The notes under the pieces were generated by a model, which had not been told where the DNA came from, ran no database searches, and saw only the letters and a list, made by a program, of their open reading frames with translations. The translations under genes and the position numbers were made by a program. From IMG/VR virus record IMGVR_UViG_2734482537_000002: a stretch of DNA of 16,599 nucleotides. One strand, written 5' to 3'. Position 1 is the first letter of the stretch. Each line of letters starts with the position of its first letter. This document shows positions 11,026 through 16,599 of the stretch, one piece after another. This stretch comes from a virus (lineage: Duplodnaviria > Heunggongvirae > Uroviricota > Caudoviricetes).

Positions 11026-14706
<3,681 letters not shown>

Positions 14707-14732
<26 letters not shown>

Positions 14733-15252
14733 TCAGCAACCCCGGTATCAGTTCATCCAGCGCGGCTGCTTTGTTCATGGCTTTGATGATATCCCGTTTC
14801 AGGAAATCAACATGTCGGTTTTCCAGTTCCGGAAAACGCCGCTGCACCGACAGGGGGATCCCGTCGAGAATACTGGCAATTTCACCTGCGATCCGCGACA
14901 GCACGAAAGTACAGAATGCGGTTTCCACCACTTCAGCGGAGTCTCTGGCATTTTTCAGCTCCTGTGCGTCGGCCTGCGCACGCGTAAGTCGATGGCGTTC
15001 GTACTCAATAGTCCCTGGCTGGAGATCTGTCTCGCTGGCCTGCCGCAGTTCTTCAACTTCCCGGCGCAGCTTTTCGTTCTCAATTTCAGCATCCCTTTCG
15101 GCATACCATCTTATAACGGCGGCAGAGTCATAAAGCACCTCATTACCCTTGCCACCGCCTCGCAGAACGGGCATTCCCTGTTCCTGCCAGTTCTGAATGG
15201 TACGGATACTCGCACCGAAAATGTCAGCCAGCTGCTTTTTGTTGACTTCCAT
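14707..15252 (-). CDS. Nu1: Terminase small subunit Nu1 (cosB-binding)
   Basis: 181-aa ORF, ATG at 15252..15250. Translation MEVNKKQLADIFGASIRTIQNWQEQGMPVLRGGGKGNEVLYDSAAVIRWYAERD matches lambda gpNu1 from memory. Confidence 0.96.
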
Positions 15253-15277
15253 TGTTCATTCCACGGACAAAAACAGA

Positions 15278-15332
15278 GAAAGGAAACGACAGAGGCCAAA
15301 AAGCCCGTTTTCAGCACCTGTCGTTTCCTTTC
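15278..15332. repeat. cosB R2/R1 pair: perfect 15-bp inverted repeat, the Nu1 binding elements
   Basis: gaaaggaaacgacag at 15278..15292 and its exact reverse complement ctgtcgtttcctttc at 15318..15332, separated by 25 bp. This corresponds to the lambda R2/R1 arrangement (established knowledge). Confidence 0.8.
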
Positions 15333-15371
15333 TTTTCAGGGGGTGTTTTAAATAAAAACATTAGGTTACGG

Positions 15372-15389
15372 CGAAGAAGAACGGAAACG
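15372..15389. promoter_or_regulatory. cosB R3-like element
   Basis: cgaagaagaacggaaacg, whose reverse complement CGTTTCCGTTCTTCTTCG matches the lambda R3 region from memory. The A/T-rich stretch 15341..15371 between it and R2 is where the IHF site I1 lies in lambda. Confidence 0.6.
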
Positions 15390-15429
15390 CCTTAAACCGG
15401 AAAATTGTCATAAATAGCGAAAACCCGCG

Positions 15430-15441
15430 CGCCTTCCGCCC
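15430..15441. promoter_or_regulatory. cosN core (position of the 12-nt cohesive end), variant relative to lambda
   Basis: Window reads cgccttccgccc where lambda, in this orientation, is aggtcgccgccc (reverse complement of GGGCGGCGACCT). Flanks on both sides match lambda. 5 of 12 positions differ, all in one half. Confidence 0.7.
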
Positions 15442-15640
15442 CGTAACCTGTCGGATCGCCGGAAAGGACCCGCAAAATGATAATAATTATCATCTACATG
15501 TCACAACGTGCATCTACGCCATCAAACCACGTCAAATAATCAATTATGACGCAGGTATCGTATTAATTGATCTGCATCAACTTAACGTAAAAACAACTTC
15601 AGACAATACAAATCAGCGACACTGAATACAGGGCAACCTC

Positions 15641-15874
15641 ATGTCAACGAAGAACAGAACCCGCAGAACAACAACCCGCAACATCCGCTTTCCTAACCAA
15701 ATGATTGAACAAATTAACATCGCTCTTGTTCAAAAAGGGTCCGGGAATTTCTCAGCCTGGGTCATTGAAGCCTGCCGCCGGAGACTGTGCTCAGAAAAAA
15801 GAGTTTCGCCTGAAGCAAACAAAGAAAAGAGTGACATTACTGAATTGCTCAGAAAACAGGTTAGACCAGATTGA
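15641..15874 (+). CDS. Small ribbon-helix-helix-like (Arc/CopG-type) putative DNA-binding protein; N-terminal two thirds lambda-like, C-terminus divergent
   Basis: 77-aa ORF, ATG at 15641. The pattern NIRFP (beta strand), NQMIEQINIALVQKG (helix), SGNFS (turn), AWVIEACRRRL (helix) fits the RHH fold. The N-terminal part matches the small cos-adjacent ORF at the lambda right end from memory. Transcribed opposite to the late operon. Confidence 0.6.
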   Translation: MSTKNRTRRTTTRNIRFPNQMIEQINIALVQKGSGNFSAWVIEACRRRLCSEKRVSPEANKEKSDITELLRKQVRPD

Positions 15875-15931
15875 AGCAATTTAGATAATCGTGCAGACTA
15901 CGCCCCCTCATATCACATGGAAGGTACTACA

Positions 15932-16342
15932 ATGGCTCAGGTTGCCATTTTTAAACAAATATTCGATAAAGTGCGAAATAATTTAAACTATCACTGGTTT
16001 TATTCTGAACTAAAACGTCACAATGTCTCACATTACATTTACTATTTAGCCACAGAGAATATTCATCTTGTTCTTGAAAACGATAATACGGTTTTAATAA
16101 AAGGACAGGGTAAGGTTGTAAATGTAAGATTTTCAAAAAATAAATGCCTTATAGAAGCCACCTTAAAAGGATTCAAATCAGGAGAGTTATCATTTTACGA
16201 ATACAGGAAAAATCTTGCTACAGCAGGGGTTTTCAGATGGATTACAAATATCCACGAAAACAAAAGGTATTACTATACCTTTGATAATTCATTACTCTTT
16301 ACTGAGAACATACAGAACACTACACAAATATTTCCGCACTAA
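15932..16342 (+). CDS. Hypothetical protein, 136 aa, strongly AT-rich; non-lambda cargo (moron-like)
   Basis: Open frame 15917..16342. The second ATG at 15932 has a GGAAGG ribosome binding site 7 nt upstream. GC content is visibly far below the structural genes. No recognisable catalytic or transmembrane motifs. Possibly related to small DLP12-type prophage proteins of E. coli (memory only, unverified). Confidence 0.55.
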
Positions 16343-16350
16343 ATCATAAC

Positions 16351-16379
16351 GTCCGGTTTCTTCCGTGCCAGAACCGGAC
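16351..16379 (+). other. Hairpin 8 nt after the stop of the AT-rich ORF (8-bp perfect stem, 13-nt loop), no U-tract
   Basis: gtccggtt at 16351..16358 pairs with aaccggac at 16372..16379. It is not a canonical intrinsic terminator because no T-run follows. Confidence 0.35.
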
Positions 16380-16387
16380 TCGCTGGC

Positions 16388-16597
16388 ATGATGAAATATG
16401 TGTACCCGGTAACCCCGGTGTGCATCGTTTTTGATTATTCCCGCACACTCGCGCAGAAGGAGTTCCCCGTCGGGCTACGGTCTCTGTTAATACGGGAATA
16501 CGGCGACGATTGGATTTGCCCCTATATTTCCAGACATCTGTTATCACTTAACCCATTACAAGCCCGCTGCCGCAGATATTCCCGTGGCGAGCGATAA
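16388..16597 (+). CDS. Hypothetical small protein (69 aa, or 68 aa from the second ATG)
   Basis: Complete ORF ATG ATG AAA ... TAA (stop at 16595..16597) on the same strand as the two upstream cargo ORFs. No clear ribosome binding site. An alternative 67-aa minus-strand ORF overlaps it, so the coding call is tentative. Confidence 0.35.
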   Translation: MMKYVYPVTPVCIVFDYSRTLAQKEFPVGLRSLLIREYGDDWICPYISRHLLSLNPLQARCRRYSRGER

Positions 16598-16599
16598 CC

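Follow-up and report, generated by a model that had tools for sequence, protein, structure and literature searches.

DUF1398 is an already known protein family: it is catalogued in Pfam, it is carried by phage lambda and a structure was already available in 2006. Three paralogues, ybcV, ydfO and ycgX, are found in E. coli K-12 (PMC3509220). The first belongs to the DLP12 prophage and the second to Qin, and the lambda member is annotated as lambdap78. In this work, we describe a further allele, an open reading frame (ORF) of 136 codons at 15932-16342 of a 16,599-nucleotide stretch of viral DNA (Caudoviricetes; IMG/VR record IMGVR_UViG_2734482537_000002), the whole of which is called the window below. 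That this ORF is a DUF1398/YdfO-family gene is practically certain. The sensitive homology search proposed in an initial annotation of the window, made from the letters alone, returned Pfam PF07166 (DUF1398/YdfO-like) at 147.1 bits, against a cut-off of 22, with residues 8-126 aligned to the entire profile (1-119 of 119), and the nuclear magnetic resonance (NMR) structure of E. coli YdfO (PDB 2HH8) with an E value of 3e-67 and 78% identity over 135 residues. The annotation had called the ORF one of unknown function, which is correct for the function and not for the family.

YdfO has the same length as the window protein, and the Qin locus has the same layout, a 77-aa YnfO-type ORF, a short spacer and the DUF1398 gene being found beside terminase and cos. 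The two alleles differ mainly in residues 58-97; the window gene lies in an apparently complete lambda-like morphogenesis module, whereas Qin is a decayed cryptic prophage, and in the window a copy of IS2 lies 168 bp downstream of the gene. Lambdap78 and YbcV correspond to the window gene in map position (the interval from cos to the lysis genes) and in orientation with respect to cos, and share with it the upstream box, the -10-like hexamer and the Shine-Dalgarno sequence (identity is 76% for the protein and 83% for the DNA). In lambda and DLP12, however, 613 bp containing p79/ybcW on the other strand separate the DUF1398 gene from a 64-aa DUF3950 ORF, and bor follows the gene; in the window the interval is 57 nt, and in the phages closest to it a small ORF and a KilA-N gene follow DUF1398, with no bor.

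YcgX and the other chromosomal DUF1398 proteins belong to the same Pfam family, have the same length and are encoded by genes of lower GC content than their flanks; the motifs Y-[IVF]-[YH]-[YF]-[LV]-[AS]-T-x-N and A-G-V-[FY]-[RK]-W are shared. In contrast, their identity is 21-47%, and their genes lie outside prophage late regions and have no DUF3950 neighbour. The lambda morons bor and lom resemble the window gene in being non-essential, oppositely or independently transcribed within the late region and deviant in composition, and bor lies in the same Rz-to-cos interval; both are proteins of the envelope whose expression in lysogens and effects on the host are established, whereas the window protein is predicted to be cytoplasmic and is known here by sequence. 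On balance we lean, by a narrow measure, towards viewing the window gene as an autonomous, host-directed accessory gene of lambdoid prophages whose product acts by binding. The binding mechanism, taken by itself, is offered tentatively and is open to serious doubt.

Coding capacity, fold and conserved residues

The initial annotation had described the ORF as strongly AT-rich, with a sharp drop relative to the structural genes, and as preceded by a good ribosome binding site; both descriptions were confirmed. The GC content of the ORF is 0.314 (0.307 at third codon positions), compared with 0.541 for terminase A and 0.527 for Nu1; with respect to the structural region (mean 0.568, standard deviation 0.027) this corresponds to z = -9.4. 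The lowest value among all N-free 411-nt segments of the window, 0.307, is that of the segment starting at 15939. A dip to still lower GC near position 517 was rejected as spurious: it is produced by a run of 250 N at 676-925, inside a tail gene on the minus strand (ORF 633-1310), and not by real sequence.

The reading frame is uninterrupted and ends with TAA. An in-frame ATG at 15917, the start given in the ORF listing, would extend it upstream, but ATG 15932 is the better start, because its pairing with the anti-Shine-Dalgarno sequence, evaluated over the preceding 20 nt, is the stronger (-6.8 kcal/mol via GGAAGG, versus +1.9 for ATG 15917). In the lambda and DLP12 versions ATG 15917 is out of frame, and the Shine-Dalgarno region, ATGGAAGGT, is unchanged in all five aligned versions. 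Pairwise comparison of the ORF with lambda p78 and with Qin-type ydfO gave dN/dS values of 0.19-0.30; because of these values, and of the 78%-identical protein with a solved structure, the ORF is a real protein-coding gene under selection.

The encoded protein has a mass of 16 kDa, an isoelectric point (pI) of 9.4 and 16% aromatic residues, and contains no hydrophobic segment long enough for a transmembrane helix or a signal peptide. Structure prediction, also proposed initially, yielded an AlphaFold model based on a 20-sequence alignment, with a predicted local distance difference test (pLDDT) score of 89 and two tandem helix-helix-three-strand units, the same fold found in 2HH8. The DUF1398 fold is shown to be an internal duplication of this unit. 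No repeat is detectable within the protein at the sequence level (score 31, versus 26 +/- 5.6 in shuffles), and no fold relatives were found outside the family.

Within the 20-sequence alignment, which extends down to 21% identity, L27, T41 and G99 are the sole invariant residues, and Y35, N43, L95, A96, A98, V100, W103, R112 and Y114 are at least 90% conserved; the window protein has all of the family-conserved T41, G99, Y35, N43, W103, R112 and Y114. Conservation extends to none of the Asp, Glu, His, Cys or Ser residues, and for this reason a non-enzymatic activity is proposed: the product would be a small soluble cytoplasmic protein, acting stoichiometrically, by binding rather than by catalysis. 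Among alleles, variation is somewhat higher in residues 71-97, corresponding to helices 3-4, where the mean entropy is about 0.6 bits, than in most strands, where it is 0.1-0.4; strand E3, at 0.67, is an exception.

A more specific form of binding was also considered, in which RNA or single-stranded DNA would be contacted through the open face of the six-stranded sheet, in the style of SRP9/14-type alpha-beta sandwiches, altering the expression of host or phage transcripts. The basic pI and the aromatic content, the Tyr, Trp, Arg and Asn conserved in strands and the two-unit model are all compatible with this possibility; no known nucleic-acid-binding Pfam family or motif was matched, however, and we consider it quite unlikely.

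Lambda homology and the neighbouring ORF

The coordinates of the gene and of its surroundings are collected in Table 1. The initial annotation had placed the ORF, as cargo, immediately after the boundary of lambda homology. Alignment with lambda contradicts this placement, and with it the idea of novel cargo. By blastn, 15442-15803 matches the lambda-type right end at 95%, and 15858-16511, which includes the whole ORF and its upstream region, matches the lambda p78 region at 82.6%; by tblastn, the orthologue is located at lambda 47048-47452, with 76.3% amino acid identity. The lambdap78 product is annotated as 177 aa long; read from an internal Met, it is the same 136-aa protein. The sole stretch absent from lambda is 15804-15857, 54 bp in place of which lambda has the 613 bp already mentioned (363-975 of the lambda-type locus). 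The window features the Qin-type arrangement, in which replacement of the 613-bp segment by these 54 bp lengthens the DUF3950 ORF from 64 to 77 aa. Because the p78 orthologue aligns at the same cos-proximal position, the ORF is, as judged from these alignments, a more divergent allele of the lambda gene, and does not lie past lambda homology. Members of the family are present in lambda, in DLP12 (ybcV), in Qin (ydfO) and at the ycgX locus.

Table 1. Position of the DUF1398 gene and of nearby features within the window
Feature	Position	Strand	Remarks
DUF1398 gene (YbcV/YdfO/lambda p78 family)	15932..16342	+	136 aa
Shine-Dalgarno-like GGAAGGT	15919..15925	+	6-7 nt 5' of ATG 15932; duplex with 16S 3' end, -6.8 kcal/mol
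Putative private promoter of the DUF1398 gene	15855..15889	+	-35-like TAGACC 15862-15867, 16-nt spacer, -10-like GATAAT 15884-15889
PdhR-box-like palindrome AACAGGTTAGACCAGAT	15855-15871	+	overlaps TAGACC; unique in the window
77-aa YlcI/YnfO-family ORF (DUF3950)	15641..15874	+	Pfam PF13132, E 2e-20; NCBIfam YlcI_YnfO_N
cosN-like 12-mer GGGCGGAAGGCG	15430..15441	-	lambda right end aligns from 15442
End of IS2 copy (right end)	16511..16599	-	matches features annotated as IS2 transposase in E. coli genomes

Terminase A (12807-14732) and Nu1 (14707-15252) lie on the minus strand, together with lambda-like morphogenesis genes, and are followed by the cos-like site and by the two plus-strand ORFs. 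As initially stated, the DUF1398 gene is on the strand opposite to the late operon and on the same strand as the 77-aa ORF, from which it is separated by exactly 57 nt. This orientation bears on the name "head protein" given by PHROG 413 (category head and packaging) and by RefSeq, and on that of "putative envelope protein" in the lambda record. These labels are the whole case for a virion component; the protein does match PHROG 413, with an E value of 2.7e-87. Both labels are unsupported, because the gene lies on the strand opposite to the late morphogenesis operon, because lambdap78 is dispensable, because the protein has no signal peptide or membrane segment, and because relatives are found as lone chromosomal genes outside prophages. 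In fact, lambdap78 is non-essential in a CRISPR interference map covering the whole lambda genome, with efficiencies of plating of 1.9 and 1.3 (PMC10695390), and so is not required for plaque formation. Moreover, the YdfO structure was deposited by a structural genomics effort as "hypothetical protein", with no virion role recorded. A place in the virion is scarcely credible. The two labels, found in PHROG 413, NC_001416, NC_049953 and other records, propagate into new phage annotations.

The 77-aa ORF encodes a very basic product (pI 10.9), regarded initially as similar to ribbon-helix-helix proteins and as a possible regulator or partner of the DUF1398 gene. In a two-gene module of this kind, DUF1398 would be the toxin or the antitoxin and the DUF3950 product a ribbon-helix-helix repressor or antitoxin. 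Several aspects of the locus would suit such a module. The two ORFs share strand and reading frame, with 57 nt and a single TGA between them, and they also adjoin in Qin-type prophages; the 77-aa product has a predicted basic N-terminal tail and helices at 19-31 and 37-50, compatible with a ribbon-helix-helix fold in a low-confidence model; and ydfO has been listed as "essential only by TraDIS", that is, by transposon-directed insertion-site sequencing (PMC5821084), a signature sometimes given by antitoxins, which we read as poor transposon access rather than as true essentiality.

The distribution of the two genes does not fit this scheme. Among the phage records, 178 share the surrounding DNA, 155, many of them Shiga toxin (Stx) phages, carry the DUF3950 ORF and 43 carry DUF1398; DUF3950 is found without DUF1398 in more than 100 records, Stx phages included, and DUF1398 is found without DUF3950 at ycgX-type and other chromosomal loci. 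Because of these counts, of the lone chromosomal genes and of the split by an opposite-strand gene in lambda and DLP12, an obligatory pair is ruled out, and DUF3950 is, on this sequence survey, a frequent but not obligatory neighbour. The GC contents of the two ORFs also differ (0.44 for DUF3950, 0.31 for DUF1398), conservation across arrangements begins after the DUF3950 coding body, neither Pfam, NCBIfam nor PADLOC returned a toxin or antitoxin family, and ybcV::kan Keio mutants are viable and routinely used (PMC3945230).

Sequence searches lend no support to a ribbon-helix-helix identity of the DUF3950 product: it has no match among PDB sequences, BLASTP revealed no similarity to Arc, a permissive Pfam scan gave DUF3950/YlcI_YnfO_N only, and a single-sequence AlphaFold2 model (pLDDT 55) contains helices only. 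The toxin-antitoxin reading is, as far as distribution data can tell, largely refuted, and we hold it very improbable; the doubt already voiced in the initial annotation proved well placed, as the ORFs are separable.

The shared reading frame deserves a separate comment. One TGA and 19 sense codons separate the two ORFs, so that read-through would yield a 233-aa fusion, and the in-frame junction could allow a low level of such a protein. The same single-TGA junction is found in Qin-type loci; the chance of such an arrangement is about 0.1, and it may mean nothing. A cluster of 233-aa DUF3950-DUF1398 "fusions" (761 member sequences from metagenome protein sets) looked at first like Rosetta-stone evidence of a link in function, and was rejected as a gene-calling artefact: the Trp of the protein corresponds to TGA in the DNA, contigs that are short and AT-rich having been translated by the gene caller with a TGA=Trp code.

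On the other side of the 77-aa ORF, the cosN-like 12-mer marks the phage genome end, so that the two ORFs are at the extreme right end of the phage map. Compared with the lambda cohesive end, which we take to be GGGCGGCGACCT, the first six bases of GGGCGGAAGGCG agree and five of the last six differ; its cosQ-side and cosB-side flanks are about 95% lambda-like. Rfam and tRNA scans of 15200-16599 revealed no credible RNA gene. An inverted repeat at 15271-15338, between the Nu1 start and cos, gave sub-threshold Rfam matches to eukaryotic miRNAs (E 0.06-0.35); most probably it is due to the cosB repeats to which terminase binds, CGTTTCC and GGAAACG in opposite orientations. At the other end, homology to related phages stops exactly at 16510, at IS2, the transposase C-terminus being encoded by the minus strand of 16511-16599; a 54-aa ORF (16388 onward), intact in phages ev099 and PhiR49_1, has lost its last 13 codons to the insertion.

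Putative regulation and role in the lysogen

In the picture that we favour, the gene is a monocistronic moron, with leftward transcription that would start from a weak sigma-70 promoter of its own (approximately 15862-15889). This promoter would normally be quiet, probably through H-NS acting on AT-rich DNA, and may be switched on by particular metabolic or stress conditions, as for the paralogues: PdhR for ybcV, stress for ydfO, and derepression where H-NS is perturbed by T4 MotB. The product would bind a host macromolecule through a conserved Tyr/Trp/Arg/Asn surface, shifting host physiology to the benefit of the lysogen.

Conservation between the lambda/DLP12-type and Qin-type arrangements starts at AGGT(C/T)AGACCAGATTGAA, about 73 nt before the start codon. 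The palindrome AACAGGTTAGACCAGAT overlaps the last codons and the stop of the DUF3950 ORF, and the versions of lambda, DLP12 and Qin all conserve it. Except for a single spacer base, it coincides with a PdhR site identified by SELEX (systematic evolution of ligands by exponential enrichment) and located between ynfO and ydfO (PMC7660256); in the same study, ybcV mRNA is 10-fold lower in a pdhR mutant. Judging from these comparisons, the DUF1398 gene is shown to move as one unit with the segment upstream of it, and not with the DUF3950 ORF. Control by that ORF, as suggested initially, is not needed, the homology starting at a promoter-like, PdhR-box segment just upstream of the DUF1398 ORF.

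Data on the paralogues point to conditional expression. Exposure to an imidazolium ionic liquid raises ydfO 12- to 116-fold, and cells overproducing YdfO are described as more tolerant of oxidative (peroxide) stress (both as cited in PMC4077768). According to the literature, ydfO also responds to DicC induction. Expression of T4 MotB, which perturbs H-NS repression, increases ybcV more than 1000-fold (PMC7827196), and ybcV overexpression results in a glycogen-deficient phenotype (PMC2853380).

The view of the gene as a moron or lysogenic-conversion gene, put forward initially, holds in most respects: the gene is non-structural, cos-proximal, on the strand opposite to the late genes and of deviant composition, it is patchily distributed among close relatives (43 records, compared with the 178 sharing the surrounding DNA) and it has a dispensable orthologue in lambda. 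It does not hold for a terminator of its own, and this is the first of various points that weigh against the picture outlined above. No terminator-like site was found on the plus strand 3' of the stop, and the hairpin at 16350-16379 has no U tract and a fold-energy z of -1.28. The TAGACC-16-GATAAT promoter scores 9 out of 12 in a consensus scan, and such matches are no more frequent than in shuffled sequence; what speaks for it is the conservation between arrangements and the published PdhR site of the paralogue. Silencing by H-NS is suggested by base composition and by one indirect transcriptome study; the authors of the MotB work observe that many induced genes lie in prophages, and prophage induction may explain the rise of ybcV (PMC7827196). 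The overexpression phenotypes come from screens on paralogues 70-78% identical. The single exposed surface made of the conserved aromatic and basic residues is conjectural, and the protein may instead work as an enzyme of small size, with chemistry based on Thr, Asn, Arg or Tyr. Finally, any assignment of target and activity to DUF1398 proteins is putative.

Distribution and significance of the family

The survey of carriers proposed in the initial annotation identified DUF1398 in 43 out of 50,697 phage records, all of them named lambdoid coliphages, with the exception of one mislabelled lambda-like record. Proteins identical to that of the window are encoded by phages PhiR49_1, Kati, Chlobot and ev099 and by genomes of Escherichia albertii and Escherichia sp. 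In complete E. coli genomes, the 1-kb region of the ORF pair is at least 80% covered in 2100 cases out of 5426 (about 40%).

Among 1.84 billion representative proteins, 189 matches were found at E <= 0.001, many of them fragments, and a profile search for remote members or architectures gave close relatives alone among the best 120 listed. Once contaminant contigs had been removed, a scan of 185,579 species genomes placed DUF1398 relatives in Enterobacteriaceae only (Escherichia, Shigella, Citrobacter, Klebsiella, Kluyvera, Pseudocitrobacter and Salmonella diarizonae), with several copies per genome in Pseudocitrobacter (up to four) and in Kluyvera-related genomes. The more distant relatives, at 25-47% identity, stand alone on the chromosome, in settings unrelated to one another, and their GC content is 2-11 points below that of the surroundings. 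Of the 30 loci examined, 10 have a divergent 74-aa ORF beside the gene, the sole neighbour that recurs; it has no Pfam match, and we suspect that its recurrence comes from gene order shared by related genera and not from a link in function. In 6 loci there are DinI-like genes nearby.

DNA nearly identical to the lambda right end was found in about 25 assemblies of unrelated organisms, on contigs of about 3.5 or 48.5 kb; these include Pseudomonas, Shewanella, Kitasatospora, Oceanobacillus, and "plasmids" of Brevibacillus and Arcanobacterium. The eight loci checked are 98.8-100% identical to the lambda right end, and by this measure the material is lambda control or spike-in contamination. Contamination probably also explains the record "Campylobacter phage CJLB-4", and why DUF1398 or YlcI is mentioned in publications dealing with a fungus and with Arcanobacterium. 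The presence of DUF1398 in fungi, Gram-positive bacteria and other taxa was rejected as an artefact of lambda control DNA.

Where the relatives lie bears in turn on a role in phage conflict. A host-interaction or defence-related effector had been envisaged initially, and the gene might act in superinfection exclusion, in defence or in anti-defence, by binding an incoming phage protein or a host immune sensor. Its place, between Rz and cos, is one in which lambdoid phages carry variable genes expressed in the lysogen, bor among them; the protein is small, with an orphan fold, the gene is AT-rich and patchily distributed, and allele variation is somewhat concentrated in helices 3-4. In PADLOC-DB 2.0, however, neither ORF has a significant match, the best for DUF1398 being the negligible Csx23 (E 0.023, 12.7 bits), while the DUF3950 ORF gave nothing; the relatives are lone genes in ordinary chromosomal loci and not in defence islands, and dN/dS is well below 1. 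Searches of the literature gave no link of ybcV, ydfO or DUF1398 to phage resistance, except for one "gene loss" entry among phage-resistant mutants. We regard a conflict gene as unlikely.

The host-directed accessory gene that we favour might represent a whole class. According to this proposal, which we advance as a speculation with little chance of being right, DUF1398 would constitute a class of effectors borne by prophages and islands of Enterobacteriaceae, with an orphan fold, silenced by H-NS and switched on by stress, each binding a specific host or phage target and deriving its allele specificity from helices 3-4. The target could be a regulator of central carbon metabolism or stress, or else a component of immunity or of a phage.

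As a discovery the finding matters little, the gene being an ordinary, catalogued accessory gene of lambda-like prophages. Its value is largely corrective: a false lead, that of novel cargo beyond lambda homology, is removed, "head protein" and "envelope protein" are shown to be labels without support, and the occurrences in odd taxa and the DUF3950-DUF1398 fusions are traced to contamination and to TGA-as-Trp gene calls.

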